Assembly: GCF_963921235.1 (NCBI RefSeq)
Contig: NC_086097.1
Coordinates: forward strand, 152,150,001 to 152,214,000
From: Mobula hypostoma
Taxonomy: Eukaryota
DNA: 64,000 nt
Reading direction: 5' to 3'
The translations under genes were made by a program, and so were the position numbers. Shown here in pieces: positions 7,666 to 59,087 of the stretch. The number at the start of each line of letters is the position of its first letter. The first letter of the stretch is position 1. The notes under the pieces are model-generated. The model worked only from the letters and a program-made list of their open reading frames with translations. It made no database searches and had not been told where the DNA came from.

Positions 7666-9032
7666 CTGACCCTCTTGGGGACACTGAAGATCTCTTAATA
7701 CTTCCTGTGAATCCTCGAACAACCTACAAAGTCTGCAGTCATAGCTTTTACTTGACACCTGACTTTCTCAACATTCTGCATTGCCGAGCCGGCCTGAACT
7801 GCTGTCATCAGTTATGCACTGCTGTTGAACAGTCAGGGTAGCCTGAGCTATATGGCACTGCAGAATAATTGATTCTGTAACTCTGATATCCTTCCTGCTC
7901 TTATATCCTTTCATCCAAATTAAAGGTTGATGATAAAGCAGTTTCAATGGATACATTATTTTTCACTTAATATGTAATTAAACCCTGCATTAGACTGTCT
8001 AAAATAATGAAATAACACATTTCTTATTTTATAAAAGAAAGTTGAAATTTCAGAAAGATCTCTTACACAACAATTATTTTAAGAACTGTGCAGTGTTTGT
8101 TCCTTGGGACATTACATATTCTCAAAGCACAGCCAACAGGGTGAAGGCAGGTCTTGCCACTAGCCATTGACTATATTTTAAGCCAACACATATCAGCTTT
8201 GACTCGTGCTTGCTGTATATTTCCCCTGAATTTAGCATTATTTCTGGGTTGTTCTGTTAAAAGCAGAAAGCATGACTAAGTCAATAGGGGGTTTAAAAAT
8301 TGTTTTGACATTTAAAGACTTTTTCTAAGAAAGGTTGAATGGAAATAGGGGGGTATTTTCAGTAGGCAGAGAATGTGTATCTGGAAGGATTTGTAGTCTG
8401 TGGTTAATAATTGCCATGAAAGATCAAAGAGAGAAATAATGACTCTCAGTTCTTCAATATGATAGGCCAGAGTGTGAAAAAATCTGGCCTGGGGTAGAAT
8501 CCAGCAGATGAGAAGATACTTGAGTTTGTAGCTTTAGGAAGTCATCAGTCACAGTGAATTAAATAACTATAAAACAATAACTCCTATCTTCCTGTGGGCT
8601 ACGAGAATCATAAATGTGCAGTGACATAACCCCCTGCATACTATTACAGGACCTTTCTCATCCATCAGCCAATCCTAACTCAGGGAACTTGCCAGAATGT
8701 GATGTAATTGCTTATTAATTGACCTTCTGTACCCATTCAGAAATGTGTCTGTTTAACCACTTGTCGATTGTGCAGTGAAAGCCATTTCAGAATACTGTTT
8801 CATATAATTTATATCACAAACTGTACAACATGACACTATTCACATGGCACACGCAGCCAGCATCCTTTGGAAATATGTTCATGTCTCAGAAGTGGAGGGC
8901 AGCTGACAGCTACAAGATAAAGAGATTTTATTTTTAATTTTAGAGACAATGTTACTTTCTGCTGGGTTGGCTGAAGCTGATGGAGAAACAGGCAGATTGC
9001 TATGCTGTTCAAAAGAAAGGCCAATGAATGGT

Positions 9033-9160
9033 AACACGAGGAAATCTATCTCTTTTTTCAGTTAGTCCTGATGAAGGGTCTCGACGCGAAACGTCGACTG
9101 TACCTCTTCTTATAAATGCTGCCTGGCCTGCTGCGTTCACCAGCAATTTTTATGTGTGTT
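9033..9160. mobile_element. Penelope-derived mini-insertion (inverted 3' end plus hammerhead segment) with 13-bp TSD
   Basis: GCCAATGAATGGT occurs at 9020-9032 and 9161-9173. The interior matches the PLE terminus at 42465-42575. Confidence 0.85.
9064..9100 (+). ncRNA. Minimal type I hammerhead ribozyme motif (stem II damaged)
   Basis: AGTC CTGATGA A GGG TCTCGA CGC GAAAC GTC GACT: intact catalytic core boxes, stem I AGTC/GACT, palindromic ACGT stem III. Confidence 0.75.
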
Positions 9161-9319
9161 GCCAATGAATGGTGATTGGCCATTTGTCACTTCAAGGGCT
9201 AAAATCCAGCAGTAATCTTTGAATGGAATACACTTGTAATTAACACCTTCAATGACCTTTTCCTTAGTTACCTACACTTCTGAATGAGCACTTGAATCAC
9301 AAAGACATTGTAAACTTAA

Positions 9320-9786
9320 AGCCCAATTTATACTTCTGCGTCAAATATACGCCGTAGATACTGTGTACTCTTCGCCGTAGGGTGACGTGCACCTCCGCAA
9401 AAATGTAACTCGCGCATCGTGGCGACGCAGATTGCAACAACTGTGATTGGTCCACTTGGTAGCATCGCATTTCCTCCTACGCATTTCCGGTTGCTTTTCT
9501 CCGTCTTGTCTGTACACTGATGTGAAATAAATGGTTGGAGATGATGAATCAAATCGTCAAATCTACCTGCCGACATCCGAAAATATTTGAAATGCATTTC
9601 CTCGTCCATGTCTCTCATGAAGAAACTCAACACAGTGGCATAGAAACCCCACTGCCAACTAGCGTTTTGGCGGTGAATTGCAGAGCGACGCAGACACAAC
9701 TACGCATACTCGCTATGGCTCAGGGCTACGCAAAAGTATAAATCAGGCCTACAGTGTAGCCCGTACACACAAGTATAAATCAGCCT
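9320..9786 (-). mobile_element. PIF/Harbinger internally deleted DNA transposon
   Basis: Terminal inverted repeats (TIRs) AGCCCAATTTATACTT / AAGTATAAATCAGCCT match at 13/16, with TAA on both flanks. The minus ORF contains [26 protein letters not shown], like the N-terminal FRMS motif of Harbinger/HARBI1 transposases. Confidence 0.85.
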
Positions 9787-10829
9787 TAAGGCAAAGTGCT
9801 GGCAAAATCAGCTCAGTATAGGTTCGTACTTAATGGTTGACATAAGATAATGGATCAAAGGGCCTGGTTTTGTGCTATATGACCATGACTTGATGACATC
9901 TAAAGTGGACTTCCAAATACTAATGTGAATGCAGTTCATTAATGTTCTGTACAGAAGAGAAGCTACCATGCTTACCTGGACTGGCTAGCATGCAACTTCA
10001 ATCCTGTACTATTGTAGTTGTTTCTTAAGTTTCCTTTGAGGTGGTGTAGGAAGCTCATGGTTATTCTAATTGTAATCTAAATATTATAAAACCAAATGAA
10101 CCAATTAACACCAACTTTATATATAAAACAATTGCTACATTTGGAGCATATCAGGCAGCTCAGACTTCAACATTCATGAGGATCTGTGGTCCATAAGAGG
10201 CAGTAGGATTGTACTTCACTTCAATCTGCAATCTCATATTTTGACATGTTCCTTATTTGCCATGTTGCTAGGAGATTACTACTGTGGAAGAATATACTGG
10301 GGGCAGCAGTAAACATACTTCAAAGTGATGATCCAGCCTGTGAATCCACAACATGAGATTAAAATACATACTGCTGACAGAATTATGCAATTCCAAAGTC
10401 AATTGATACATCAAAGATTGCAGTCCAGTCACATCCATTAATAAGTTTGCAGTGGGCAGTTAACTCGCTGATGAGATGACCAAGGTGCATATATATCCCC
10501 ATATTCAATAATGATGAGAGCTGTTTGAATGACAGTTGTGATGGTACTGTGGCACAGACACCAGTGCTGCTGTCTCATCGCCCCATCATTACTGACCTTC
10601 AGTGTTGTCTGTGAAGAGCATGCATGTTCTCATGTCCTATATTCATCGGCCTGTGTTCAGTATGAAGTGAATGGGTGGCATTTAGAAAGCACTGCCGTGG
10701 CTGTGGCAGAGGTGGTTTCCATTGTAGCACTGCTTACCTGTAAGTATGTGGTGGATGATGGGTTCCTCTTGGCCTCTTGGGTTAATTGACTAACTAGTAA
10801 GCTAGTGAGTAGTAGAATCTGAAACCCCA

Positions 10830-12318: not shown

Positions 12319-12403
12319 AGTCATATCCTCATGACTTTGAAATAATTTGTCATCCCGTCAATAACAATAACATTTTCAAAGGAATTTCGTGATGTCAGAA
12401 CCT

Positions 12404-16260: not shown

Positions 16261-16269
16261 ACTGGGTCT

Positions 16270-17805: not shown

Positions 17806-17808
17806 CAA

Positions 17809-20900: not shown

Positions 20901-21049
20901 AGTAAACAAGAAAAATTTGACAATACTTTTCCATCCATCCGATTGTGTTACTTCCAGTAAGATGGTGACGAGTTTGGACGTAGTGGCCTTTCGGGTCCAA
21001 CCAAAGGTTTTTTTTTTACAAAGGTTGGACGAGTAACGCCTTATATTCT

Positions 21050-21490
21050 ATCAGGGTAACCTCTAACCCATGGCATGAACATTGATTTCTCAGACTTCTG
21101 GAAATGCCCATCCCCGCCATTCCCCATTCCTGTTTCCCTCTCTCACCTTATCTCCTTACCTGCCCATCACCTCCATGTGGCGCTCCCCCTACCTCCCCTT
21201 TCTTCCATAGTCTTCTGTCTTATATTAGATTCCTCCTCCTCCAGACCTTTATCTCTTTCACCAGTCCACTTCCCAGATTTCAACTTCACCCCCTTCTCCC
21301 AGTTTCACTTATCACCTCCCCTCCCCCTACCTTCTTACAGACTTCTCCTCTTCATTTCCAGTCCTGAAGAAGGGACTAACCCTAAAATGTCGACCGTTTA
21401 CTTTATTCCATAGATGCTGCCTGGCCTGCTGGGGTCCTCCAGCATTTTGTATGTGTTGCTTTGGATTTCCAGCATCTACAGATCTTCTCA
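21050..21490 (+). mobile_element. Penelope-like element 3' fragment with degenerate hammerhead (21360-21394)
   Basis: GMNIDFS ORF terminus as at 42150-42178, a pyrimidine-rich UTR, then AGTC CTGAAGA AGGG ACTAA CCCT AAAAT GTC GAC (GAAA box mutated). Confidence 0.8.
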
Positions 21491-21494
21491 CCTT

Positions 21495-22192
21495 TTTTTT
21501 CTTTACTAAATGTCTTTTTAATGATCGCAAGACCATACTGGACTCCAATACTGCAGGTCTACCTCATCAATGAGCTGCTCGTTGATTGGAGGAACTAGAC
21601 GGGGTGTTGAAGGAGCCAGGCTGAGTTTGGAGGTGCTGGACTGGGTGCAGACTGTGTTGCTGCCTGCTACAGGAAGGCATTGAAGGCTTCAAAGTTGGTG
21701 CGTGAAGGCGGCATGCAGTATAATCATGGGTGATTGTTGTAGACATTTCTCTTGTGATCGCAAGACCCTGCTGGACAGGGATAATGTAAGATGTTGCAGG
21801 CTTGTTACCCTTATTTAGTGACAAGACAGGTAGCAGGGAAGCTGCATAGCCTCGGTTGTAGCAGGGTCTAGGCCTCATGCCACAGGTTTGCCTGCTCCTA
21901 CAGTCCAGGCGAGGAGAAGCCGGAGACGGTGTAGCACAGTGTCCATGCTCAGATAGGGGGCTGGCCTCTGCCATCAGTGATGGAATAACAGGCTGGATTG
22001 CAGTGGCTGTGCACTTTCGAGAACTGCACCGTCAATTGGTGGGCCAGGTCGGTCAGGGACTTGGGCTAGGCATATGTTTTCTTATGCTACAATGTTCTTT
22101 TCGCTCATCCAGAGGAACGCAGTTTTGTTTGGCACTATTCATGTATGCTTAAATGATAATTAATCTTGAATTTGATTTGATTTTGATTTGAA
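21495..22192 (+). mobile_element. Unclassified non-coding interspersed repeat ending in (TTGA)-type tail
   Basis: GC-richer block with an internal repeat of gatcgcaagacc and a tail ttgaatttgatttgattttgatttgaa. It probably begins near 20958 and is split by the PLE fragment. Confidence 0.4.
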
Positions 22193-23474: not shown

Positions 23475-25560
23475 AGACTATAAGATATAGGTGCAAAATT
23501 AGGCCATTTGCCCCATCGAGTCTGCTCCACCATTTCATCATGGATGACCCATCTCCCTCTCAGGTTCAATCTCCTGCCTTCTCCCCATATTCCTTCATGC
23601 CCTGACTTGTCAAAAATCTATTAACCTCTGCATTAAAAATATTTAGTGACTTAGCCTCCACAGCCATCTGTGGCAATAAATTCCTGTATCCCTTAGTACC
23701 CTGACCAATCAAGAATCTATTAACCTCTGCCTTAAATATACATACTTGTCCTCCAATCTTGCCTGTGGCAAAGAACTACACAGATTCACCACCCTCTGGC
23801 GAAAGAAATTCCTCCTCACCTCCATTCTAAAAGGATGCCCCTCTATTCTGAGGCTGTGTCCTCTGGTATTAGACTGTCTCACCATAGGAAACATCCTCTT
23901 TACATCTACTCTATCAAGGCTTTTCACAATTCGATAGGTTTCAATGAGGGCACCCTCATTCTTCTGAATTCTAGTGAATACAGGCCCAGAGCCATCAAAC
24001 ACTCTTCATATGACAAGTCATTTAATTCTGGAATTATTTTTGAGTACCTCCTTTGAACTCTTTCCAGTTTCAGCCTATACTTTTGAAGAAAACATGTGCA
24101 AAACTGCTCACAATACTCCAAGTGAAACCTCACCAGTGTTTTATAAAGTCTCAGCATTACATCCTTGCTTTTCCATTCTAGTATTCTTGAAATTAATGCA
24201 TTTGCCTAACTCACTATAGACTCAACCTGCAAAGTAACCTTTAGGGAACCCTGCACAAGGACTCCTAGGATCTGATACTTTCTAGGATATGGGGCGCAAA
24301 TCTGTTGCCAATATTCTAATGGCAGTCTGACTAGTGTCTTATAAAAGCTCAGCATTATCTCCTTGCTTTTATATTCTATTCCCCTTTGAAATAAATGCCA
24401 ACATTGCATTTGCCTTCTTTACCACAGACTCAACCTATAAATTAACCTTCTGGAAGTCTTGCACGAGGAATCCCAAGTCTGTCTGCAACTCTGATGTATG
24501 AACCTTTTCCCCATTTAGATAATAGTGCCCTCTATTGTTCCTTTTACCAAAATGCATCATCAAATCGTTGATATGTAATGTAAAAAGGATCGGTCCCAAC
24601 ACACACCCCGGTGGAATACCACTGGTCACTGGCAGCCAATCAGAAAGGGCTCCCTTTATTCTCATTCTTTGCTTCCTGCCAAACAGCCACTGTTTTATCC
24701 ATGCTAGAATGGTTACTGTAATACCATGAGCTCATAGCTCACTAAGCAGCCTCTTGTGTGGCACCTTGTCAAAGTCCTTCTGAAAATCCATGACACAACA
24801 TTAGCTGATTCTCCTTTGTCTATCCTGCTTGTTATTTCTTCAAGGAATTCCAATAAATTTTCCAGACAAGATTTTCCCTTGAGGAAACTATGCTAACTAT
24901 GGCCTATTTTATCACTTGTCTCCAAGTACCCCGAGAAATCATCCGTAATAATCGACTCCAACAACTTCTGAACCACTAAGGTCAGGCTAACTGGCCTATA
25001 GTTTCCCTTCTTCTGCTTCTCTCCCTTCATAAAAAATGGTGCGACATGTGCAATTTTCCAGTCTTCTGGAACCATTACAGAATCTAGTGATTCTTGAAAG
25101 ATTATTACTAATACCTCCACAATCTCTTCAGCCACCTCTTTCTGAAGCCTGGGATTTACACCATCAGGTCCAGGTTACTTACTTATCTTCAGGCCTTTTA
25201 ATTTCGTCAGACCCTTCTCCTGGGTAGTGGTAACTTCCCACACTTCATGACCCCTGACATCTCGAACTTCCACCACATTGCCAATGTCTTCCACAGTGAA
25301 GACTGATGCAAAATACTTAGTTCATTCACCATTTCCTTGTTCCTCATTACTACCTCTCCAGCATCATTTTCCAGCAGTCCAATATCCACTCTCACCTCTC
25401 TTCTACACTTTATGTATCTGAAGAAACTTTTGGTATCTTCTTTAGTATTATTGGCTAGCTTGCTTTCATATTCCATCTTTACCATCTTAATGACATTTTT
25501 ATTTGCCTTCTGTTGGTTTTAAAAAGTTTCCCAATCCTCTAACTTTCCACTAATTTTTGC
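23475..25560 (-). mobile_element. Older CR1 LINE, rearranged and degenerate
   Basis: LYKTLVRFHLEYCEQF, VTSGIPPGCVLGPILFTLHINDL, VPEDWKIAHVAPFF...GNYRPVSLT; the 3'-UTR segment and the LYKTLVR segment are each locally duplicated. Confidence 0.88.
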
Positions 25561-26677
25561 ACCCTTTCTATGGTTTCCACACCTTCCTGTGGTGAGGTAA
25601 CCAGAACTGAGCACAGTACTCCAAGTGGGGTCTGACCAGGTTCCTATATAACTGCAATATTACCTCTCCGTTCTTAAACTCAGTCCCACGGTTGATGAAG
25701 GCCAATGCACTGTTCGCCTTCTTAACCACAAAGTCAACCTGCACAGCAGCTTTGAGCGTCCTATGGACTCAGACTCCAAGATCCCTCTGATCCTCACACT
25801 GCCAAGAGTCTTACCGTTAATACTATCTTCTGCCATCATATTTGACCAACCAAAATGAACCACCTCACACTTATCTGGGTTGAACTCCATCTGCCACTTC
25901 TCAGCCCAGTTTTGCATCCTATCAATGTCCCGTTGTAAACTCTAACAGCCCTCCACACTATCCACAACACCCCCAACATTTGTGTCATCGGCAAATTTAT
26001 TAACCCATTCCTCCACTTCTTCATCCAGGTCATTTATAAAAATCACAAAGAGTAGGGGTCCCAGAACAGATCCCTGAGGCACACCTCTGGTCACCGACCT
26101 CCATGCGGAATATGACCCACCTATAACCACTCTTTGCCTTCTGTGGGCAAGCCAGTTCTGGATCTACAAAGCAAGGTCCCCTTGGATCCCATGTCTCCTT
26201 ACTTTCTCAATAAGTCTTGCATGGGGTATCTTATCAAATGCCTTGATAATATCCATATACACTACATCTACAGCTCTACCTTCATCAATGTGTTTAGTCA
26301 CATCTTCAAGAAATTCAATCAGGCTGGTAAGGCACGATCTGCCTTTGACAAAGCCATGCTATTCCTAGTCATATTATGCCTCTGCAAGTGTTCATAAATC
26401 CTGCCTCTCAGGATTCCTCCATCAACTTTCTAACCACTGAAGTAAGTCTCATTGGTCTATAATTTCCTGGGCTATCCCTACTCCCTTTCTTGAATAAGGG
26501 AACAACCTCCACAACACTCCAATCCTGCCCCCCCCCCAAACAGTTGTGCCCCGTTCAAACCGCTGAAGAAATAACTGTCACCTTTTCAACTCTGCTCGCT
26601 TTTAAACTCTTCCCACTGTTTCATTGGCCGACCTCCGCGCGCTTGCGCAGTCGTGCCCCATTCAAACCGCTGAAGAA
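25561..26677 (-). mobile_element. CR1 (young family) RT fragment joined to a CR1 5'-terminal segment
   Basis: GVPQGSVLGPLLFVIFINDL...KFADDT. Positions 26540-26677 match the 5' end of the CR1 at 44329 (TTCTTCAGYGGTTTGA..GGGGCAYGACTGCGCAAGCGCG). Confidence 0.85.
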
Positions 26678-26679
26678 GT

Positions 26680-29065: not shown

Positions 29066-29579
29066 TGTCCATTATAAATACAGAGGTTCTTTCATTTTTT
29101 TTTTGTTTTGTCCCAGTGGCAATGTCAGAGTAAGACAAATCAGTACCCTGTCTGTTTGAAGGCAATGTAATTGTACTTGTCCTTCCCCCTGGTATTGATC
29201 ACTGAACAGGGACATGACACTTCATGCATGGTGAGCAGTTGCAAAATGCACTGAAGCACAAAAGTTTTCCATGGGCCTGTCCCTCTCTGAGAATCTGGAA
29301 AATAAAAGATCTTTATTTTGGGAAAGGAAAAGAAACAGGTGTAGCAATATGCTTGGATTATAATGTACTACAGAATTGTTGTTTTGCACTAATTGTTGTC
29401 ACAGTCCAATTATTTCCAATTATAAGCATTGACTCTATCAACATCTGGTTACCAATATAATTTTGTTATAGAGGATGATACATTCACAATTTGCATTTAA
29501 ACTAAAATATTAAACACTGCAGAAATTCAAGACTCCTATATCCTATTGAATAAATCCAAAATGAGGGTATCAGGAGCAG

Positions 29580-29693
29580 CGCACACAAAATGCTGGAGGA
29601 GCTCAGCAGGTCATGCACCATTATGGAGAGGAATAAAGAGTTGACATTTCAGGCTGAGAGCTTTCATCATTTCCAGCATCTGCACAATTTCTT
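29580..29693. mobile_element. Older Penelope-derived mini-insertion (inverted hammerhead segment plus 3' end)
   Basis: The minus strand reads TGATGA AAGC TCTCAG CCT GAAAT GTC AAC, followed by forward tttccagcatctgcac. Flanks GTATCAGGAGCAG (29567-29579) and GTGTCAGGAGTAG (29694-29706) match at 11/13. Confidence 0.72.
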
Positions 29694-31561
29694 GTGTCAG
29701 GAGTAGTTAAACTTTGAAGATAATTTAGCCTGAAGTGGGAGTATTATGAATTTCCCATAAATATAGCCAAATGATAAATCTTTATACTGTAACCCAGCTG
29801 ATCAGTTAAAACAATTAAGTCTAAAAAGGGGCTTAAAAAAATTACTTGCACAAGATGATTAGATTCTACAGCGACCTGCTAAATCTAGGAGAAATTAACC
29901 TGCGAAGTAAGTAATTGTGGACCATATTGTGTTTGGATCTACGTGTTGGATTCAGTGGACCATCATTTTTTGTGAACCTTTCCTCTCTAAAGACATTGAC
30001 TCTTATTGGCATATACAGTACTTGTTTATATACAGATACCACACAGAACACCTGCTCAAGTTACAAACTTCATAATCTTGAGACTGCATTATGGAATGTT
30101 AAACGCTTGGGCCAGAATTTTGGTTCTACAGAAATTCCTCTCTCAGGTGATTACGTGAGGTCAGGTATTGAAGAGGAACATTTATATAAATCATAATAGG
30201 TATTGTCAAATGTAAGGAAGATTTTGAATAGTGACTTTGATCTGGAAGATGCCCACTGCAATGTGTTAATCAATAAGGGGAATGATGAATGATTTGTATA
30301 CTTCCTACCCTGGTGACACTGATGCTGCAGACTGGCAGACAGCTTGGTGTTACTATTAGCACAGACCAGGGTATTCTAGATCATAAACATTGCTTTAAAA
30401 CAAACAGGAAGAACCATGCAGGAGGACATCACTTTGGGATGAAGTCCTCAACAGAACACAAATAATGAGCCATAGAATCTCACTCATTAAGGGTTGAGTA
30501 ACTCACAAGTTGCTGACTCCGTGTGCCAGTAATATAAACAGCATTATACCAGTAATATACCAGTAATATAAACAGCATTATAAAAAGTGTTTACAGTGTA
30601 GGATATTGAGTGAGGTAATAGATAGAGGGGGGTGAGGGGGCTGACTGGTGTGATTGATCAGATTAACTGACTGGGGAAGAAACTTTTAAGATGGCACAAT
30701 GTTTTTGTTTTAATAGCCCTATAATCATATCATCTCTGCAACCAAACTCTTGATAAACGTTTCCATAGCAATAGCCTCTCAGTGCACACTGAGGCTGTGA
30801 AAATTGCAATGTAACTGCAAGCATTCCTTTTCTTCAAAAAATGCAATGTCCACTTATGACCCTGATCCCACAATTTCCCTGACAGTAATCATATGGGTAT
30901 CTTCACTGTTGTTGGAACCTTTCTATCCTATGTTACTGTGACCATGACAGCCTTCCTCAAGTATGCCCAAAACTTGGGAATTTGCCTCAAAAAATGGTAC
31001 AATATGCATTCTATTCTCAGAATCTGGAATCAACCCTAGTGTTCATAAACCTGTCTCCCTAATGGTTCAGCTTCACCCAATACCCTTGTACTTACAAACA
31101 ACTGAAAGCATTATGAACTACGTTTTGCAGAATATTTTGTATTCTCGGAAAGTACCATAGCATGAGTGGATGAGTTGCACATCCACAGTAAAAGCATCTC
31201 AATTACTATGCATGGATTACCTATGTTTGATTAACCTGCAGCACCCCAAAAAAGGGAAAAAAGTGGGTTCTAAAATTAGGTTTCTAAGTGTTGGAAAATG
31301 AAAACAGGATCTGAGTCACCAACATAAAATATATAGTCACTCTCTTGAACTTAACAAAGCCGTCAAGAAGAAGTAATATACCCATTAATAGAATTACATG
31401 TTATAATTAACACTGCTAAAGCCATGATTATTCCCTCTTCTTCACCTTATCTAGCATCATGATGATTTGCTTAAAAATTACAGTAGCTTAAAAGGTTGCA
31501 GTTAACCTGACCTTTTGGCTAGGAATACCTGTTCAATCCTCCTATGGGAAACCCTTTCAGT

Positions 31562-36400: not shown

Positions 36401-36730
36401 GCTCAAAGTTCAAAGTACATTTATTACTGAAGTATGTACAACCTTGAGAGTTGTCTCCTTACAGGCAGTCTCAAAACAAAGAAACCAATTGAAAGAGACT
36501 GGGAAACAGCTAATGTGCAAAAAAAAAGAACAAATCATGCAAAAAAGTAAATAACATTCAAAACTAAAGTTCACAAAAGTGATCCCACAGCCATGAAGCC
36601 AGTTGTTCGTTATAGCCCGTCTAGGAGCCTATCATTTGCAGGCCACATCCTCAGTTCAATGAGCTAAACACCAGCCTGTCCCTTATCTCCTGTCCTGACA
36701 CCCTGGCCTTTTCAATCTGGCCTGGCATTT

Positions 36731-39700
36731 AGAAACACAGAAACATAGAAAACCTACAGCACAATACAGGCCCTTCGGCCCACAAGACTGTGCTGAACAT
36801 GTCCCTACCTTAGCAATTACCAAGGGTAACCCGGAGCCCTCTATTTTTCTGAGTTCCATGTACCTGTCCAAGAGTCTCCTAAAAGACCCTATCTGCCTCC
36901 ACACCATCACTGGCAGCCTATTCCACCCACTCACCACACTCCCTGTGTAAAAAAAAAACGTACCCCTGACATCTCCTCTGTACCTACTTCCAAGCATCTT
37001 AAAACTGTTCCCTCTTGTGCTAGCCATTCCAGCCCTGGGAAAAAGCCTCTGACTATCCACACAATCAATGCCTCTCATCATCTTATACACCTCTATCAAG
37101 TCCCCTCTCATCCTCTGTTGCTCCAAGGAGAAAAGGCTGAGTTCACTCAACCTGTTTTCATAAGGCATGCTCCTCAATCCAGGCAACATTCTTGTAAATC
37201 TCCTCTGCACCCTTTCTATGGTTTCCGTATCCTTCCTGTAGTGATGCGATCAGAACTGAGCACAGTACTCCAAGTGGAGTCTGACTAGGGTCCTATAGAG
37301 CTGCTACATTACCTCTCGGCTCCTAAACACAATCCCACAATTGATGAAGATCAATGTACCATATGCCTTCTTAACCACAGAGTCAACCTGTGCAGCTGCT
37401 TTGAGTGTCCTATGGACTCGGACCCCAAGATCCCTCTGATCCTCCACACTGCTTAGAATCTTACTGTTAATACTATATTTTGCCATCATATTTGACCTAT
37501 GAAAATGAACTACCTCACACTTAACTGTGTTGAACTCCATCTGCCACTTCTCAGCCCAGTTTTACATCCTATCAATGTCCCGCTGTAACCTCTGACAGCT
37601 CTCTACACTATCCACAACACCCCCAACCTTTGTGTCATTAGAAAATTTACTAACCCATCCCTCCACTTCTTCATCCAGGTCACTTATAAAAATCACAAAG
37701 AGCACTTTTCCCAGAACAGATCCCTGAGGCACACCTCTGGTCACCGACCTCCATGCAGAATATGACCTGTCTACAACCATTCTTTGCCTTCTGTGGGCAA
37801 GCCAGTTCTGGATCCACAAAGCAATATCACTATGGATCTCATGTCTCCTTACTTTCTCAATAAGCCTTGCATGGGGTACATTGTCAAATCCATATACACT
37901 ACATCTACTGCTTTACCTTCATCAATGTGTTTAGTCACATCCTCAAAGAATTCAATCAGGCTCGTAAGGCACGACCTGCCTTTGACAAAGCCATGCTGAT
38001 GATTTCAAATCATATGATGCCTGTCCAAATGTTCATAAATCCCTCCCTTCAGGATCTTCTCCATCAACTTACCAACCACTGAAGTAAGACTCACTGGTCT
38101 ATACTTTCCAGGGCTATCTCTACTCCCTTTCTTGAATAATGGAACAACATCTGCAACCCTCCCATCCCCATTGATGATGCAAAGATCATCGCCAGAGGCT
38201 CAGCCATCTCCTCCCTCGCCTCCCACAGTAGCCTAGGGTACGTCTCGTCCGGTCCCATGACTTATCCAACTTGATGCTTTCCAAAAGCTCCAGTACATCC
38301 TCTTTCTTCATATCTACATGCTCAAGCTTTTCAGTCCACTGTAAGTCATCCCTACAATTGCCAAGATCCTTTTCCGTAGTGAATACTGAAGAAAAGTACT
38401 CATTAAGTACCTCTGCTATCTCCTTCGGTTCCATACACACTTTTCCACTGTCACACTTGATTGGTCCTATTCTCTCATGTCTTATCCTTTTGCTCTTCAC
38501 ATACTTGTAGAATGCCTTGGGGTTTTTCTTAATCCTGTCTGCCAAGGCCTTCTCATGGCCCCTTCTGGCTCTCCTAATTTCTTTCTTAAGCTCCATCCTG
38601 CTAGCCTTATAATCTTCTAGATATCTATTATTACCTAGTTTTTTGAACCTTTCGTAACTGCTACTTTTCTTCTTGACTAGATTTATAACATCCTTTGTAC
38701 ATCACAGTACCTGTACCCTACCATCCTTTCCCTGTCTGATTTCAACGTACCTATGCAGAACTCCATGCAAATATCCCCTGAACATTTGCCACATTTCTTC
38801 CAGACATTTCCCTGAGAAAATCTGTTCACAATTTATGCTTCTAAGTTCCTGCCTGATAGCCTCATATTTCTGCATCCAATTAAATACTTTCCTAACTTGC
38901 CTGTTCCTATCTCTCTTCAATACTATGGTAAAGGAGATAGAATTGTGATCACATTCTCCAAAATGTTCTCCCACTGAGAGATCTGACACCGGACCAGGTT
39001 CATTTCCCAATACCAGACCAAATACAGCCTCTCCTCTTGTAGGCTTATCTAAATATTGTGTCAAGAAACCTTCCTGAACACACCTAACAAACTCCACCCC
39101 ATCTAAACCCCTTGCTCTAGGGAGATGCCAATCGATACTTGAGAAATTAAAATCTCCCACCACAACAACCCTGTTATTATTACACCTTTCCAGAATCTGT
39201 CTCCCTATCTGCTCCTCGATGTCCCTGTTACTGTTGGGTGGTCTATAAAAAACACCCAGTAGAGTTATTGACACCTTCCTATTCCTAACTTACACCCACA
39301 GAGTCTCTGAAGATAATCCCTTCATGTCTTCCTCCTTTTCTGCAGCCGTGACACTATCTCTGATCAACAGTGCCACGCCCCCACCTCTTTTGCCTCCATC
39401 CCTGTCCTTTCTAAAACATCTAAAGCCTGGCACTCAAATTAAACATTTCTGCCCCTGAGCTATCCAAATCTATGTAATCGCCACAACATCATAGCTCCAA
39501 GTATTCTACGCTCATCCATTTTGTTCATAATACTCCTTGCATTAAAACAATCGGTCTGAACGAGTCCCTTCTCTATCATCTGCCTGTCCCCTTTTTGTAC
39601 TGTCTCCAAGCTTTCTCTATTCGTGGCCCAACCGCCTCTTCCTTCGTCTCTTCAGTTTGGTTCCCACCCCCCAGCAATCCTAGTTTAAACTCTCCCCAGT

Positions 39701-39898
39701 AGCCTTGGCAAAGCTCCCTGCCAGGATATTGGTCCCCTGGGATTCGAGTGCAACCCGTCCTTTTTGTACAGGCCACTCCTGCCCCAGAAGATGTCCCAAT
39801 GATCCAGAAATCTGAATCTCTGCCCTCTGCTCCAATCCCTCAGCCACGCATTTATCCTCCACCTCACTCTATTCCTATACTCACTGTCACAGGCAGTA
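36731..39898 (-). mobile_element. CR1 LINE (ORF1 end, APE, RT, 3' UTR), degenerate
   Basis: RINAWLRDW; LLGVFYRPPNS...VVVVGDFNF...EHFGECDHN (APE); GVPQGSVLG; RRFTRMLPGL; agaaacatagaa tail. Confidence 0.95.
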
Positions 39899-41566
39899 AT
39901 TCCTCAGTAATTTTCTCAGCTCGTTGGTCACTTTCAGACCTGGGCACTTCCACTTCAATATGCTCTCTGGCCAGCACTCCAGCACCTCGATTTGGCCTGC
40001 ACCTGACCTTTCTAATCTGGCTCACTGCTTAAATTGGTCGAATATTGACTTTTCCTTGTTCTCGGGCCTGGGCCCTACTGCCACAACTTTGCCTCGCCTT
40101 GGATATGCCACTTCAGATCAGCTCCCAGCCCACTCCAGCAATGGACAAGCATTAACTCATTGCTCGCCTTTGAGCTCGAGCTTTGTTGCCTCTATTCAAC
40201 CTGAATACACCGCTCTGCAAACATGCAGAACCTTCAGGACTTCAGTTCACACCTCAAAAATGCTAGGTCATACCAGCAATTGAAAAGCTCAGCTCTGAAA
40301 GGGAAGTTACAGGCTATTGAGCGCGGTGATATTTTTCCAGGAAAAGGGTGAATAGTAGAGTAGTTAGTAGTTTTGATTTCTGCCAGCAAGGCATCGCTGT
40401 GTTTGACCAGCGCCATTTTAAATTGGACAAATAGTGTTATGGTAACCATTACATGGTGCTGCCCCAGTATATATATCTTTTACATGTCTGGAGCTCCACA
40501 AAATAATTTACAGCAACTAATAATTTCTGAAGTATAATCACAGCTGTTTTATAAATATATATGATAGTAAAATTTCACAGATAGCATGAGAAAAACATGT
40601 TAAATGCAGAATAAGGTTTGCTTTGGCTGTTGGAGCACAACCCTGACCTTCCTTGGTGTACAAATTTTACTCATACCTAAATGAACAGATTTTTAATTTT
40701 TCCTCTAAAAGGTCAACAATATAAATTTCTATCAAAGCTCCACTGAAGGGAAAAGTTCCTGAAATTGAATTGGAACCAGTAACACAATTGTTCCAACATA
40801 CTTGGTTAAATTTGTAAGAGGCTCATTTTGAATGAATTGAGCAATAGCATTGACTTTTTCAACTTTGTGCTATCTCTGGTTTCAAATTATGTTGCAGATA
40901 TGCAGGTCATTAGTAGTGTGCATTTATTGCTTCACAAAAATTTCAGCTAGTTGTCTCATATTTTCTGGCAAACAGCATCACAGTCAGTTGGATTTCAAAA
41001 CTGCCAGGACAACCAGTCCCTAGTGTAGCCTCTGTTTATTCAGAATCAAAACAACCTAACATCTGCTTATGTAGATAACTGTAGTAACTGATGCAACCTA
41101 AATAAAGAGAAATTATATGCAGAAATTGAGTTGGATTTAGTAAACCATATTTATAGCTTCAGACTTCTGTTGCTACTTGAGTACATTGAAGTTTATAATC
41201 ATATGCTGAGCCTGGCTTATTAATGAAATACAACAATGGATTATTGCATATCATCAAGTACAAGATGAGACCTATTCATTGTATTTTATTAAATCTACAA
41301 ATGGATTATTCTTTGAGTATGCAATCCGTCTATATTTAATATTTTTCTGTGTTCTTAGAAAATTTCCACCTTTGATCTCTGTGTGCATGATACAGAATCA
41401 ATTTAATTTACTCCAAAACAATTAGAAAGAAAAGCAACTCTAATGCAAAGTTGGCATTAGGGCTTGCCAAGTTTACCTTTACAACCAGGAAAACAAACTA
41501 TTACTGGCATAGACTCAAAAGACCCAATAGCCTCCCTCTATTTGTTATGAAAATATCAGAAAAGGA

Positions 41567-42178
41567 ATGGGGCTGGAATGGAATGCGCAAGGCGGGTCAG
41601 CAGTGGAACCTATTCTCCGTAACTTCCGCCACCTCCAACGGGATCCCACCACTAAGCACATCTTTCCCTCCCCCACTCTCTCTGCATTCCGCAGGGATCG
41701 CTCCCTACATAACTCCCTTGTCCATTCGTCCCCCCCATCCCTCCCCACTGATCTCCCTCCTGGCACTTATCCGTGTAAGCGGAACAAGTGCTACACATGC
41801 CCTTACACTTCCTCCCTTACCACCATTCAGGGCCCCAAACAGTCCTTCCAGGTGAGGCATCACTTCACCTGTGAGTCGACTGGGGTGATATACTGCGTCC
41901 GGTGCTCCCGATGTGGCCTTTTATATATTGGTGAGACCCGACGCAGACTGGGAGACCGCTTTGCTGAACATCTACGGTCTGTCCGCCAGAGAAAGCAGGA
42001 TCTCCCAGTGGCCACACATTTTAATTCCACATCCCATTCCCATTCTGACATATCTATCCATGGCCTCCTCTACTGTAAAGATGAAGCCACACTCAGGTTG
42101 GAGGAACAACACCTTATATTCCGTCTGGGTAGCCTCCAACCTGATGGCATGAACATCGACTTCTCTAACTTCCGCTAA
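41567..42178 (+). CDS. Uninterrupted 203-aa ORF encoding PLE GIY-YIG endonuclease (first ~15 codons probably from flanking DNA)
   Basis: ORF track plus GIY-YIG motifs VIY...YIGET and conserved R, E and N positions. Translation in vivo is not shown. Confidence 0.6.
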   Translation: MGLEWNAQGGSAVEPILRNFRHLQRDPTTKHIFPSPTLSAFRRDRSLHNSLVHSSPPSLPTDLPPGTYPCKRNKCYTCPYTSSLTTIQGPKQSFQVRHHFTCESTGVIYCVRCSRCGLLYIGETRRRLGDRFAEHLRSVRQRKQDLPVATHFNSTSHSHSDISIHGLLYCKDEATLRLEEQHLIFRLGSLQPDGMNIDFSNFR

Positions 42179-42608
42179 GGCCCCACCTCCCCCTCGTACC
42201 CCATCTGTTACTCCTTTTTATGCACACATTCTTTCTCTCACTCTCCTTTTTCTCCCTCTGTCCCTCTGAATATACCTCTTGCCCATCCTCTGGGTCACCC
42301 CCACCTCCTTGTCTTTCTTCCCGGACCTCCTGTTCCATGATCCTCTCGTATCCCCTTTTGCCTATCACCTGTCCAGCTCTCGGCTCTATCCCTCCCCCTC
42401 CTGTCTTCTCCTATCATTTTGGATCTCCCCCTCCCCCTCCAACTTTCAAATCCCTTACTCACTCTTCCTTCAGTTAGTCCTGACGAAGGGTCTCGGCCTG
42501 AAACGTCGACTGCGCCTCTTCCTATAGATGCTGCTTGGCCTGCTGCGTTCACCAGCAACTTTTATGTATGTTGCTTGAATTTCCAGCATCTGCAGAATTC
42601 CTGTTGTT
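41611..42608 (+). mobile_element. Penelope-like element (Neptune-type), 5'-truncated: Zn-knuckle linker, GIY-YIG endonuclease, 3' terminus with hammerhead
   Basis: Open frame with CKRNKCYTC, GVIYCVRCSRCGLLYIGET..RLGDRFAEH and LGSLQPDGMNIDF; terminus ...ttccagcatctgcagaattcctgttgtt. Confidence 0.92.
42476..42512 (+). ncRNA. Minimal type I hammerhead ribozyme motif (best-preserved copy); predicted cleavage after C42507
   Basis: AGTC CTGACGA AGGGTCTCGGCCT GAAAC GTC^GACT: complete core, stem I AGTC/GACT, short stem II, loopless palindromic stem III. Confidence 0.85.
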
Positions 42609-42939
42609 AGAGAGCAATAACTTTGTTTCCTGATCTGTGCTAGTTTAGCTTTGTGATAGTGCCTCCAATATCACCAGCAAGACCAGGCTACAAAGAGGAA
42701 GTACACGGCAAATGTGCATACCTTTTAAAGACTTATTCAGAAATCACTGCCTTATCAAGGGAATAAAAAGACAGTGTTGAGAATGCATCTTAAAGGACAA
42801 CTGGTAAAAATCAGTCTCTACTTGAAAGCAGTCGGTACTCTTGCAGGAACTTGGTAAAATAGTTTATTGCTGTCACTTATACTGAGTACAGTGAAAAACT
42901 TTGATTTGCATGCCATATAATATAGATAATTTCATCACA

Positions 42940-44328: not shown

Positions 44329-47011
44329 TTCTTCAGTGGTTTGATCAGGGCATGACTGCGCAAGCGCGTGGATGTCAGACAGGTAGAACAGCGAGAAGAA
44401 TTTAAAAGGAGTTGGCTTTATAGAGCGGGTGACAGAGTAGGAAGGCTTTGGCTTAATGGGGCTTCACCGATAATGGGTTGAGGCGAGTTAGGTTGCCTGT
44501 GTAGAATACAGACAGGAAGTATGTGAGTGAGGCCGGTGTTCTGTGCTCAGTGTCAGATGTGGGAGGTCCTGGAGACTCCCAGCCTCCCGGATGGCCACAT
44601 CTACACCAGGTGCGTTAAGCTGCAGCTCCTTAGGGACTGAGTTAGGGAACTGGAGATGCAGCTTGATGACCATCATCTGGTCAGGGAGAGCGAGGAGGTG
44701 ACAGAGAGGAACTATAGGCAGGTAGTCACATCAGGACCACGGGAGACTGACAAGTGGGTAACAGTCAGGAGAGGGAAAAGCAAGAGGCAGATGCTAGAGA
44801 GTACCCCTGTGGCTGTACCCCATAACGATAAATACTCCGGCTTCAGTACTGTTGGGGGAGATGGCCTATCTGGGGGAAGCAACAGTGGCTGCGCCTCTGG
44901 CACGAAGTCTGTCCCTATGGCTCAGAAGGGCAGGAAAAGGAAAAGAATGGCAGCAGTGATAGGAGATTCTATCGTTAGAGGGTCAGACAGGCGATTCTGT
45001 GGATGCAGGAATGAAATGTGGATGGTAGTTTGCTTCCCAGGTGCCAGGGTCCGGGGTGCTTCTGATTGGGTCCACGATATTCTGAAGTGGGAAGGAGAAC
45101 AGCCAGAGGTCGTGGTATATATTGGTACCAGCAACATAAGTAGGAAAAGGGAGGCAAAAGAGGTGGAGGTGAGGTACTGTCAATCAGAGATATTGTCACT
45201 GCTGCAGAATAGGAGGAAGACATGGAGGGATTGTCTATGGAGTCTCTGTGGGTGAAAGTTAGGAACAGGAAGGGGTCAATAACTCTACTGGGTGCTTTCA
45301 AAAGATCATCCAATAGTAACAGGGACAGATAGGGAGTCAGATTAGAAAGGTGTAATTATAACAAGGTTGTTGTGGTGGGAGATTTTTATTTCCCAAATAT
45401 TGATTGGCATCTCCCTAGAGTGAGGAGTTTAGATGGGATAAAGTTTGTTAGGTGCGTTCAGGAAGGTTTCTTGACACAATATGTAGATAAGCCTACAAGA
45501 GGAAAGGCTGTACTTGATCTGGTATTGGGAAATGAACCTGATCTGGTGTCAGATCTATCAGTGGAAGAGCATTTTGGAGATATTGATCACAATTTTATCT
45601 CTTTTACCATAGCATTGGAGAGGGATAGGAATAGACAAGTTAAGAAAATGTTTAATTGGAATAAGGGTCTATCAGGCAGGAACTTGGAAGCATAAACTGG
45701 GAACAGATGTTCTCAGGGAAACGTATGGAAGAAATGTGACAAATGTTTGGGGGACTTTTACATGGAGTTCTGCATTGGTACGTTCCAATGTGACAGGGAA
45801 AGGATGGAATGGTACAGGAAATGTGGTGTACCAAGACTGTTATAAATCTAGTCAAGAAGCAAAAAAGAGCTTACAAAAGGTTCAAAAAACTAAGTAATGA
45901 TAGAGATCTAGTAGATTATAAGGCTAGCAGGAAGAAGCTTAAGAATGAAATTAGGAGAGCTAGAAGAGGACATGAGAAGGCCTTGGCGGACAGGATTAAG
46001 AAAAACCTCAAGGCATTCTACAAGTATGTGAAGAACAAGAGAAGAAGACATGACAGAATAGGACCAATCAAGTGTGACAGTGGAAAAGTGTGTATGGAAC
46101 TGGAGGAGATAGCAGAGCTACTTAATGAATACTTTGCTTCAGTATTCACTATGTAAGATGATCTTGGCAATTGTAGGGATGACTTACAGCAGACTGAAAG
46201 GCCTGAGCATGTAAATATTAAGGAAGAGGATTTGCTGGAGCTTTTGGAAAGCATCAAGTTGGATAAGTCACCAGGACCAGACAAGATGTAGTTCAAGCTA
46301 CTGTGGGAGGCGAGAAAGGAGATTGCTGAACCTCTGGTAATGATCTTTGCATCATCAATGGGGACGGGAGAGGTTTCAGAGGATGGAAGTGTTGCAGATG
46401 TTGTTCCCTTATTCAAGAAAGGGAGTAGAGATAGCCCAGGAAATTATAGACCAGTGAGTTTTACTTCAGTGGTTGGTAAGTTGATGGAGAAGATCCTGAG
46501 GATTTATGAACATTTGGAGAGGCATAATGTGATTAGGAATCATCAGCATGGCTTTGTGAAAGGCACGTTGTGCCTTAGGAGCCTGATTGAATTTTTTGAG
46601 GATGTGATGAAACTCATTGATGAAGGTAGAGCAGTAGCTGTAGTGTATATGGATTTCAGCAAGGCATTTAATAAGGTACCCCATGCAAGACTTATTGAGA
46701 AAGAAAGGAGGCATAAGATCCAAGGGGACCTTGCTTTGTGGATCCAGAACTGACTTGCCCACAGAAGGTAAAGAGTGGTTGTAGACGGGTCATGTTCTGC
46801 ATGGAGGTCGGTGACCAGTGGTGTGCCTCAGGGATCTGTTCTGGGACCTGGATGAGGAAGTGGAGGGATAGGTTAGTAAATTTGATGATGATACAAAGGT
46901 TGGGGGTGTTGTCGATAATGTGGAGGACTGTCAGAGTTTACAGCGGGACATTGATAGGATGCAAATCTGGGCTGAGAAGTGGCAGATGGAATTCAACCCA
47001 GATAATTGTGA

Positions 47012-47160
47012 CAGCAACACACATCAAAGTTGCTGGTGAACAGAGCAGGCCAGGCAGCATCTCTAGGAAGAGGTACAGTCGACGTTCCGGGCCAAGACCC
47101 TTCCTCAGGACTGATGTGTGTTGCTTGAATTTCCAGCATCTGCAGAATTCCTCGTGTTTA
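47012..47160. mobile_element. Penelope-derived mini-insertion with perfect 13-bp TSD, nested in CR1 RT
   Basis: CAGATAATTGTGA occurs at 46999-47011 and 47161-47173. Positions 47012-47114 are the inverted PLE terminus; 47115-47160 are the forward extreme 3' end. Confidence 0.9.
47076..47113 (-). ncRNA. Minimal hammerhead motif (GAAA box mutated to GGAA)
   Basis: The minus strand reads CAGTC CTGAGGA A GGG TCTTGG CCC GGAAC GTC GACTG. Confidence 0.65.
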
Positions 47161-47603
47161 CAGATAATTGTGAGGTGGTTCATTTTTGTAGGTCAAATAA
47201 GATGGCAGAATATAGTATTAATGGTAAGACTCGAGGCAGTGTGGAGGATCAGAGGGATCTTGGAGTCCGAGTCCATAGGACAATCAAATCTGCTATGCAG
47301 GTTGAGTCTGTAGTTAAGAAGGCATAGGGTGCATTGACCTTCATCAATCGTGGGATTGAGTTTAGGAGCCAAGAGGTAATGTTGCAGCTATATAGGACCC
47401 TGGTCAGACCCACTGGGAGGACTGTGCTCAGTCCTGGTCACCTCACTATAGGAACGATGTGGAAACCATAGAAAGGGTGCAGAGGAGATTTACAAGGATG
47501 TTGTCTGGATTGGGGAGCATGCCTGATGAGAATAGGTTGAGTGAACTCAGCCTTTTCTCCTTGGAGCAACAGAGGATGAGAGGGGACTTGATAGAGGTGT
47601 ATA

Positions 47604-50519: not shown

Positions 50520-50592
50520 AGTATTCTTGAAGCTAGACTTGCAGAGTGTGTATAATCTGGTCCACGTAAAGGAGAACGACGAGCCCAAACAG
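50520..50592 (+). mobile_element. Sushi-like Gypsy RT remnant, right part
   Basis: Translates VFLKLDLQSVYNLVHVKENDEPK, the expected continuation (F.KLDL..AYNLVRI..GDEWK) of LQGARVF at 44328. Confidence 0.75.
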
Positions 50593-56711: not shown

Positions 56712-57280
56712 CCCATGACTGTGTAGCCAAGTTTCCATCGATCTCAGTGTATAAGTTTGCTGATGACACCACAATTGTAGGCCATATTCGAGTAATGATG
56801 AGTTTGAGTACAGAGAGGAAATTAAGAACCTGGTGGCATGGTGCAAAGACAATAACCTATCCCTTAACTTCAGTAAGATGAAGGAATTTGTTGTTGACTT
56901 CAGAAGGAGTAGCGGACCGCACAACCCCATTTACATCGTGCTGTGCAAGTGGAACAGGTCAAAAGCTTTAAGTTCCTTGGGGTCAATATCACAAGTGACC
57001 TGACTTGGTCCAACCAAGCAGAGTTCACTGCCAAGAAGGCCCACCAGCACCTTTATTTCCTGAGAAAGCTAAAGAAGTTTGGCCTGTCCCCTAAAACCCT
57101 CACTAATTTTTATAGATGCACCATAGAAAGCAATCTTCTAGGGTGCATCACAACCTGGTATGGAAGTTGTCCTGCCCAAGACCGGAAGAAGCTGCAGAAA
57201 ATTGTGAACACAGCCCAGCACATCACACAAACCAATCTTCCGTCCTTGGACTCACTTTACACCGCACGCTGTCGGAGCAG
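56712..57280 (+). mobile_element. Rex1/Babar fragment, same family as 2359-3394
   Basis: VEQVKSFKFLGVNITSDLTWSNQAE...KKAHQHLYFLRKLKKF; aagtttgctgatgac (KFADD). Confidence 0.9.
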
Positions 57281-57510
57281 AGCTGACGTTTTGGGCCGAG
57301 ACCTTTCATTAGGATTGGAAAAAAAGATAAGAATTCACAGTAAGATGGTGGGTGGATGGGAGTGGTAGGTGATAAGTGAAACTGGATAGGGGAAGGTGTG
57401 AAGTAAAGAGCTGGGAAGTTGATTAGTAAAAGAGCTAATGGACTGGAGAAGGGAAATCTGATATGAGAAGACAGGCCATGGAGGAAAGAGAAAAGGAAGG
57501 AACATCAGCT
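57281..57510 (-). mobile_element. Penelope-like 3' UTR fragment with degenerate hammerhead
   Basis: The minus strand reads CTAATGA AAGG TCTCGG CCC AAAAC GTC AGCT, preceded by a pyrimidine-rich UTR. Confidence 0.7.
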
Positions 57511-58354
57511 AGATACTTTGCTACTGATATTATGCCATGATCCATGTTGAAAAATTCATGGATAAAGCATATTGTTAATTGTGATTCCTGTATAGTTAAA
57601 AATCCCCTCCATATTGAGTGCATAGATTCCCACATGAATATCACTAACTTGATCAGGATACAATAACATATTCATTGTACCAGGAAACACAAAGTGTTAG
57701 GAAAGTTTTTCTTCAGATATAGAAAAGTTGTAAGTTAAAATTAGCTGCTGGATCCCGATTTAAATTCATGAATTGTGATAAAATAAACTCTTGGCTTGGC
57801 AACTGTTGTGGCCGTGGAGTAATCATTTTAGTAACCAATCTTACATTGGACTTCATAAAGACAGCAATAATTAATGACTAAGAGTTTGATAATCCAAATT
57901 ACTGAAAAGAATATAAAAAAAGGAATATTTGCCTTTACTGCATAAGTAGTCTGCAGTATTGCCACCAGGTCCTATACTATACAGCACTCTGCAGTATTGC
58001 CTACATGCTTTTGCACATTGTCACGGCGATCAACTCCAACATAATGGATTCTTCACGTGCAGTGTGCAGTAAAGTCCAACATCGAGAGAAGCTGAGAGAT
58101 GATTCATTAACTTGGGGCTCTGGTAACTGCAGCACTGCTCTATCATCAGTGTCTTCCATGGCCTCAGGGAGGCTTCTTTGGATTTCTCATTACCTTATTC
58201 CTCCTCTTCCGCTCTGATTTTCCCCTCCTTTCAGGATCACCTTGGGCAGAATAGTACAAGTTCCTGCCAGGTCTTTGGTGTCTCTGACTAATCATCTTAA
58301 AATCAATGATATTGGTGGAGAAGTAGGTTACTAGACAATACAACTACTTCCAGA

Positions 58355-59087
58355 GGGAAAAAAGAATCTCTGGTGGAACTCAACAGATCAAACAGCACCT
58401 GTGGAGGAAGAGAGATGGTTGGCATTTTGGGTGAAGACCCCACATCAGTCCTGTGTGATTTTGAATACCATATTAAATTAGCCACAATATTACTTAATTC
58501 TGATTTGGCCCATTCCAACATGTCGGTCTATGGCCTCCTCTATTGTCACAAAAAAGGCCACGCTCATTTTGGAGGAGCAACACCTCATATTCCATCTGTG
58601 TATCCTCCAATCTAATAGCATGAATATTGATTTATCTAACTTCCAGTAATTTCCCCTCCCTCCCCTACATTCTTTTTCTATTCCCTGTTCTAATCCTCCT
58701 CTCAACCCTTCTCCTCTCATCATCTACCCACTTGATAGTAATGGGTATAACTATCCTCTTCCTTCACTTTCCTCCCTGGTCTATTGTCCTCTCCTATGAG
58801 ACTCCTTCATCTTCAGCTCTTTACCCCCTCCACCTATCACTTCCCAACTTCTTATTTCTAGCCCCACCGATCCAAATACTCCTTCACCTGGTTTCACCAA
58901 TCAGCTGTCAGCTTGAACTTCATCCCCTTCCTCCACCTGCTTATCCTTTCCAGTACTGATGTATGGTCTCAGCCTAAACACTGAATGTTTATTCCTTTCC
59001 ATAGATGCTTTCCAACATGCTGAGTTCCTCCAGCATCTGTGTGTGTTGCTCAAGATGTGCAGCAGCTGTAGAATATCTTGTGCTTAT
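58355..59087 (+). mobile_element. Old Penelope-like element: inverted hammerhead segment (58355-58452) plus forward GIY-YIG C-terminus and 3' terminus
   Basis: HSNMSVYGLLYC...ggaggagcaacacctcatattc...agcatgaatattgat; degenerate hammerheads near 58425-58450 (-) and 58952-58987 (+). Confidence 0.72.

Follow-up and report, generated by a model that had tools for sequence, protein, structure and literature searches.

The stretch analysed here (the window) comprises 64,000 nucleotides of Mobula hypostoma (NCBI RefSeq assembly GCF_963921235.1, contig NC_086097.1, positions 152,150,001 to 152,214,000 of the forward strand). It carries a 5'-truncated copy of a Penelope-like element (PLE) with a hammerhead motif and several small insertions ("minis"), in which two arms of such an element are joined head to head between target-site duplications (TSDs). 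On sequence grounds, the minis belong to a Neptune/Nematis-type PLE (family A) and its older relatives. The reading that we prefer, at a probability of about 65%, is that nicks in both target strands prime cDNAs on one RNA; the two cDNAs would extend to the RNA's 5' end, located at the hammerhead foot, run off there, and become linked head to head. Positions within the element are counted back from the end of its tail, -1 being window position 42609; on this scale, the core CTGA lies at -130, the foot of helix I at -134, the predicted cleavage site at -103/-102, and the end of the pseudo-long terminal repeat (pLTR) at -36, followed by a tail of 35 nt.

The family is abundant: in the host genome of 3.48 Gb, a 21-mer of the pLTR has 92,809 exact matches, and a 21-mer just beyond the tail, in the 5' region of the open reading frame (ORF), has 399. 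A complete unit of ca. 3.5 kb (locus L102) has the order pLTR-tail-ORF-pLTR-tail. As in endonuclease-containing (EN+) PLEs, a single ORF codes for a reverse transcriptase (RT) and for a nuclease of the GIY-YIG type at the C-terminus; the 923-amino-acid frame of L102 matches RVT_1 (E 5e-5) and the C-terminus in the window GIY-YIG (E 2e-4), both below the Pfam cut-offs. L102 is frameshifted ahead of the nuclease, and both domains lie in one frame in L103 and L104. The translations contain a DKG motif and cysteines within GIY-YIG, and the linker reads C-x4-C-x2-C, i.e., the CX2-5CxxC finger upstream of GIY-YIG that defines Neptune/Nematis elements in the passages covered of PMC8557442; the predicted linker argues against the Penelope/Poseidon clade. 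A pLTR formed by a partial tandem, a tail within the 30 to 40 bp of EN+ PLEs, and an inverted 5'-truncated copy were found in L102 and 76 inverted insertions. Four long copies (L155, L166, L364, and L381) share an identical internal rearrangement near +887, which suggests a sub-lineage from one source element. Locus L061, a candidate full-length tandem, was rejected as two separate stubs.

The single-arm family A copy of the window contains a minimal type-I hammerhead (CUGANGA and GAAA boxes, helices I and II, no helix III), a motif that is broken in insertions 2, 3, and 4. Its helix I/II fold was recovered in the minimum-free-energy structure, the stability of the 135-nt region is ordinary (z -0.86), and an Rfam scan of the window gave no match at the gathering threshold. 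The coordinates of all features are collected in Table 1.

Table 1. Penelope-like features of the window and their flanking duplications
Positions	Strand	Feature
9020..9032		Left TSD copy of insertion 1, 13 bp
9033..9047	-	Tail arm of insertion 1, final ~15 nt of the 35-nt tail; read against the tail
9050..9160	+	pLTR arm of insertion 1, about -148 to -38; core CTGATGA at 9068; terminal pLTR GC common to the TSD
9161..9173		Right TSD copy of insertion 1
21022..21497	+	5'-truncated copy of an old family (ORF end, pyrimidine tract, decayed hammerhead, tail); absent from the first-pass list
29567..29579		Left TSD copy of insertion 2, 11/13 match
29580..29669	-	pLTR arm of insertion 2, older family; starts at -129 within the CTGANGA box, core C3 missing
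29670..29693	+	Tail arm of insertion 2
29694..29706		Right TSD copy of insertion 2
41611..42609	+	5'-truncated single-arm copy of family A, reaching from -998 to the end of the tail, with the GIY-YIG C-terminus (frame stop 42178), pyrimidine-rich 3' untranslated region, hammerhead, pLTR end 42574, tail 42575-42609
42456..42477	+	Predicted 3' splice-site-like stretch: branch-point-like heptamer, pyrimidine tract, two AG dinucleotides, end at helix I foot
42476..42511	+	Minimal type-I hammerhead: helix I 42476-42479/42508-42511, core 42480-42486, GAAA 42500-42503, predicted cleavage after 42507
46999..47011		Left TSD copy of insertion 3, within a long interspersed nuclear element (LINE); variant base common to both copies
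47012..47112	-	pLTR arm of insertion 3, -134 to -35, ending exactly on the 5'-end peak
47114..47159	+	Tail arm of insertion 3, -46 to -1
47161..47173		Right TSD copy of insertion 3
58355..58448	-	Old decayed pLTR arm, 68% identity to family A, 72% to the neighbouring arm
58450..59087	+	Old 5'-truncated copy, decayed hammerhead and tail, no TSD

The three short insertions of the first-pass annotation (insertion 1, 9033-9160; insertion 2, 29580-29693; insertion 3, 47012-47160) are genuine. The pLTR arm of insertion 1, from about -148 to -36 when the GC common to the TSD is included, has 89% identity to family A; insertion 2, which represents an older family, has 80%, and insertion 3 reads GGAA at its GAAA box. 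Insertions 1 and 3 each have the perfect 13/13 TSD that had been described; the 11/13 match of insertion 2 is also present, but its TSD score of only 7 was reached by 16 of 400 shuffled flank pairs. At insertion 3, the one site for which empty paralogues are available, the direct repeat was created by the insertion: both copies carry a T that is found in only 1 of 31 distinct motif contexts including this site (G in 24), and the 13-mer occurs once in paralogues of the host LINE, so the repeat did not pre-exist. No empty site was found for insertions 1, 2, and 4, for which no paralogous left flank occurs among the fetched loci. The inverted arms and missing TSD of a fourth, longer insertion (58355-59087) are confirmed, but not its origin in one event, as its arms agree in only 58 of 80 aligned bases and both hammerheads are decayed. 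Because of this 72% likeness, the decay, and the lack of a TSD, the copy and the adjoining inverted arm may be separate insertions. As read from the sequence, the hammerhead-bearing inverted arm does stop within about 20 nt of the CTGANGA box in all four. The repeats of the window are dominated by one LINE family, with several copies of 80 to 89% identity (160-2350, 25558-26526, 36730-39900, 45150-47603, and 59172-59746).

For the genome sample, the first 100 matches of the pLTR 21-mer (contig C1, first 3.1 Mb) were combined with 90 of the 100 listed places (665 matches in total) of a thinned pattern for tail-less pLTR ends on contigs C1 and C2. This yielded 184 insertions of at least 85% identity, of which 19 at locus edges were excluded from the TSD counts, leaving 76 inverted insertions and 89 others. 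Two locus pairs with near-identical flanks (L341/L342 and L428/L429) are duplicated sites and not independent insertions. The size of 115 to 150 bp reported for the minis lies at the low end of this sample, where 7 of the 76 inverted insertions have at most 150 bp and 46 at most 260 bp, with a maximum of 2.6 kb. With a cut-off reached by 1 of 400 shuffled flank pairs, a TSD was detected in 62/76 inverted and 34/89 other insertions. The narrow length distribution that had been predicted, with a mode near 13 bp, was recovered in the inverted insertions (13 bp, n = 10; 14 bp, n = 24; 15 bp, n = 16; outside this range, n = 12), i.e., 50 of the 62 detected TSDs have 13 to 15 bp, and the true mode is likely 14, given chance extension. 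The GC content of the TSDs (36.5%) indicates a target preference that is only mildly AT-rich, a point of difference from the anole PLE studied in vitro. The outer end of the pLTR arm lies at -39 to -35 in 50/62 insertions, and that of the tail arm is centred on -1; at these two ends, the target matches the continuation of the element over a mean of 1.65 and 1.17 nt, compared to 0.52 and 0.33 nt after shuffling (exceeded in none of 500 shuffles).

The inner ends of the arms are clustered rather than uniformly spread, as anticipated by the first-pass annotation. Of 267 arms, 28 end at -135 to -133, a per-base rate ca. 60 times that upstream (hazard of 0.056 per nt versus 0.0009 at -201 to -1000), and 99 extend past -200. 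Genome-wide counts of arms beginning at a given base, defined by two non-matching upstream bases, amount to 275 at -140, 699 at -135, 3,488 at -134, 3,541 at -133, 618 at -129, 404 at -102, and 109 at -99. The 5'-end peak is accordingly located at A-134/G-133 (42476-42477 in the window), the foot of helix I, about 30 nt upstream of the predicted cleavage site. Since the -134 and -133 patterns also match older families in 4/30 and 7/30 loci, some of them long arms with point changes, the family A share is nearer 3,000 and 2,700, respectively; the count at -135 does not exceed the expectation from a chance T preceding a -134 end. Single arms directly adjoin the TSD at -133 in 8/30 loci, two of which are one duplicated site. 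Ends at -148, candidates for a stop at a lariat branch point, occur in 4/267 arms, a number too small to weigh. A spliced template, in which the AG ahead of the hammerhead would be the junction with an upstream exon, was rejected as the source of the peak, because no upstream sequence common to the arms was seen and single arms begin within a few bases of the TSD. The L102 reference has a deletion of its own that accounts for an apparent cluster of ends at -1039. Frequently, a -134 start is preceded by a few additional bases that match the hammerhead core (L271, L276, L286, L292, L296, and L299), as though the RT, once at the end, had primed again on RNA close by.

Among 70 two-arm insertions, the pLTR arm is longer in 35, the tail arm in 17, and both are equal in 18, which rules out a simple fold-back on one cDNA, because either arm can be the longer one. 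The arm lengths are nevertheless coupled (short/short in 50, long/long in 13, mixed in 7; p 2e-8), and the subfamily alleles are concordant between the arms in 342 of 371 comparisons versus 58% after shuffling. Priming from both nicks on one RNA is the simplest reading of these data, given the coupled lengths, the concordant alleles, the freedom of either arm to be longer, and the two starts and two-strand extension of an anole PLE in vitro (PMC11167929, as far as covered).

In principle, the common end of the arms might also reflect a stall of the RT at the peak base of a longer RNA, blocked by splicing factors on the AG or by the element's own protein on the hammerhead. The predicted splice-site-like stretch, whose AG ends exactly at the peak, would suit such a block, as would the D. 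virilis element, in which an intron end coincides with helix I's 5' end (PMC4209133, in the passages covered), and a block on each molecule would likewise couple the two arms. The branch-point-like heptamer is perfect in ca. 42% of long arms, and the arrangement of heptamer, tract, and AG is present in older families too. However, this sequence also occurs in the upstream pLTR of long copies, which mostly read through it. Ninety loci with an ORF start were fetched, 60 were classed as long, and 44 reach -110 in the upstream pLTR; only 6 of these 44 stop at -170 to -110, compared to 113 of 219 terminal arms (p 2e-6), or 5/42 after removal of four two-pass insertions from the long set. In such two-pass insertions, the copy resumes in the 5' region of the ORF (+33 to +1288) and recrosses the tail; 25 were picked by hand, with the exclusion of those resuming in the ORF interior or at an unrecognisable place. 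Their first end lies at -135 to -133 in 8/25, the second end falls within 12 nt of the first in 13/25 (5.3 expected by shuffling, reached by 1 of 20,000 shuffles), and it does not pass the first in 22/25 (13.1 expected). The pairing extends to ends off the peak (-258/-246, -174/-172, and -88/-88), and RNAs with the peak end extend at least 1.2 kb into the ORF in L376, L383, and L388. Read-through in long copies and the paired two-pass ends therefore favour a physical RNA end over a stall, which we regard as improbable; overall, the evidence points to a physical 5' end as a better fit than a sequence-intrinsic stall or a switch set by the ribozyme.

The latter had been proposed by the first-pass annotation, namely, that the structure next to the ribozyme sets the template switch or second-strand priming point, here taken to include a self-priming fold-back, and a related self-priming model appears in the passages covered of PMC3846280. 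In its favour, some joints run through complements of helices I and II: among 30 loci with a start at -102, a -134/-102 joint through the helix I complement was found in 7 and a -120/-102 joint in 5. Furthermore, the two ends lie no more than 10 nt apart in 18 of the 70 arm pairs, and palindromes were seen at several joints. The peak is not specific to inversions, however, because, of 113 arms for which no inverted partner was detected, 15 terminate at -135 to -133 as well, and the breakpoint cluster is thus not tied to the inversion as had been claimed. The tail-less arm is the longer one in half of the pairs. The -134/-102 joint occurs in both arm roles, so a single self-folding cDNA cannot supply the tail. 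Joints of this kind are also a small share of all ends, as seen from the genome-wide starts at -102 versus -134, and a role of the structure in setting the switch or priming point would apply to a minority of insertions only. As a general explanation we consider it unlikely.

Even less can be said for templates cleaved by the hammerhead, with breakpoints that mark self-cleavage, an explanation that we hold to be extremely improbable. Starts at the first base of the cleavage product (-102) do exceed those at -99, but most short arms reach beyond the cleavage site, and cleavage is dispensable in vitro according to the parts covered of PMC11167929. The 30 loci of the -102 set comprise 27 inverted joints, 3 mutated long arms, and none adjoining host DNA. 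Inverted joints via helix I/II complements make up the surplus of starts at -102, and the set contains no genomic trace of cleaved templates.

The minis are independent insertion events, since hardly any joint recurs among them. Consideration was also given to a non-autonomous ribozyme family that propagates itself, comparable to short interspersed nuclear elements or retrozymes; the junction comparison gave a single shared internal joint among the 70 two-arm insertions, with opposite arm roles in the two copies. Three family A inverted minis within 2.3 Mb (L421-L423; G000:C1, 28.0-30.3 Mb) do have one joint with an extra base and the same arm roles in common, but they differ in TSDs and alleles, and their joint pattern has only 10 genome-wide matches, most of them in unrelated contexts. 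The notion of spreading ribozyme cassettes was overstated, as 91 of 161 short arms are without the start of the catalytic core and the whole 5' strand of helix I is present in only 54/161. Non-LTR retrozymes consist of head-to-tail tandems with a full hammerhead in each unit; the minis of the window are head to head with mostly partial motifs, and tandems of that type were found only at rare loci outside the window. L389 (G000:C2:157815300-157818900) has four hammerheads with a period of 310 bp and units that differ by 1 nt, each with the pLTR from ca. -139, the tail, and the ORF start to ca. +181, and L387 is a two-unit version of 262 bp. Repeated jumping, circularity of the template, or subsequent tandem amplification could have produced these loci, the other observation in favour of such a family. 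Altogether, a propagating mini family has very little probability.

The dual-nick reading can be outlined as follows. The GIY-YIG nuclease would introduce one nick into each target strand, with a spacing of ca. 14 nt. From each 3' end, reverse transcription would be primed, presumably on the same RNA molecule, with one start at the end of the tail and a second at the end of the pLTR, 35 nt further in; priming would probably take place at the 5' pLTR-ORF junction of the RNA. Both cDNAs would run off the RNA 5' end at A-134/G-133 and would then be joined head to head, presumably by microhomology or end-joining. Use of one nick, or loss of one cDNA, would leave a single-arm stub with the same 5' end, and templates beginning further upstream would give rise to long arms. 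Hammerhead cleavage would be unnecessary, with helices I and II serving merely as convenient microhomologies. With respect to the origin of the RNA end, a putative transcription start is given slightly better than even odds and trimming back to the ribozyme or a bound protein slightly less than even; the -134/-133 site resembles an initiator (YYANWYY). A more far-reaching version is offered tentatively, as something we would not bet on: the Penelope mRNA might begin at the hammerhead foot and be primed from both nicks ca. 100 and 133 nt from its 5' end, most insertions would be strong-stop-like run-off products, and a jump of the RT from the end back to the ORF start of the same RNA would generate pLTR-plus-ORF-start tandems and thereby the origin of non-LTR retrozymes.

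Several observations weigh against this reading. Private non-CpG variants are common to both arms in only 5 cases compared to 88 found in one arm. Alleles and lengths are the grounds for assuming use of the same molecule, and one active source locus together with coupled enzymes would equally account for them. The second end passes the first in 3/25 two-pass insertions (L151, L363, and L367), and the source element itself may already have carried some of the two-pass joints as deletions. Of the 60 long copies, just 2 start at -136 to -132, which is not predicted by a simple one-promoter model, and the RNA 5' end is predicted here from genomic copies. A search of public sequencing runs gave contigs only, with no carrier recorded as RNA, and four of them provided no usable information on starts, ends, or splicing. 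A cap-derived G at -135 was not seen: of the 100 -134 starts listed, 34 have G and 66 have A, versus 42% G expected (p 0.13, hand tally); G at -134 precedes a -133 start in 2/8 of the sample. Both selections of loci are biased towards young exact-match copies, and the thinned pattern demands a pLTR-ended arm. In addition, the anole element belongs to the Poseidon clade (PMC11167929, as far as covered), and the Mobula element has a Neptune/Nematis linker.

The Mobula family bears on how PLEs integrate, including the cause of their inverted ends, the tail, and the thousands of solo hammerheads. The inverted layout, one-sided tail, solo pLTRs, and opposite-strand hammerhead pairs are already published; what the window contributes is confirmation, together with some tests that discriminate between readings, and not a new system. 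A literature search, with incomplete coverage of subscription journals and supplements outside its scope, gave no paper title or passage on the -134/-133 peak or on twin priming in PLEs. In L1 twin priming, the second nick primes a second cDNA, which results in an inversion with microhomology at the joint. The Mobula arms differ in that their start sites are fixed, with 35 nt between them, and that the arms overlap for the most part.

In the passages covered, EN+ PLEs (Craig et al. 2021, PMC8557442; Arkhipova et al. 2013, PMC3846280; Schostak et al. 2008, PMC2377424) share with the Mobula family the RT with C-terminal GIY-YIG, the pLTR, the head-to-head inverted arm, the one-sided tail (35 nt here, 30 to 40 bp there), the TSD, joints with microhomology or palindromes, and solo pLTRs. 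Their TSDs have 8 to 10 bp in single rotifer examples compared to a mode of 14 here, the inversions are ascribed to self-priming, and those passages contain no single-base 5'-end peak. The minimal type-I hammerheads of metazoan PLEs (Cervera and de la Pena 2014, PMC4209133, in part) represent the same motif in the pLTR, with most copies solo and opposite-strand pairs 100 to 700 bp apart. For these, cleavage and circular templates were proposed, whereas the Mobula ends are located upstream of the point of cleavage. Non-LTR retrozymes are described, in the part covered of bioRxiv 10.64898/2026.07.22.740005, as PLE-derived, protein-free, hammerhead-bearing units of ca. 300 bp. The 310-bp tandem L389 is such a case, and the Mobula family suggests a possible route from Penelope elements to tandem retrozymes; the window minis, in contrast, are head to head and form no propagating family. 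The closest experimental counterpart is the Poseidon element of Anolis carolinensis (Frangieh et al. 2024, PMC11167929), for which the parts covered report two internal RT starts bounding the tail, cutting and extension of both DNA strands, no requirement for hammerhead cleavage, and a predicted dimer, and do not describe nick spacing, head-to-head joining, or a run-off end. The two outer ends near -1 and -36 fit the two internal starts and the two-strand extension of this element, and the Mobula family yields precise predictions for the existing in vitro system, i.e., nicks spaced by 14 nt, each with its own start site, an RNA that ends at A-134/G-133, and dispensable cleavage.

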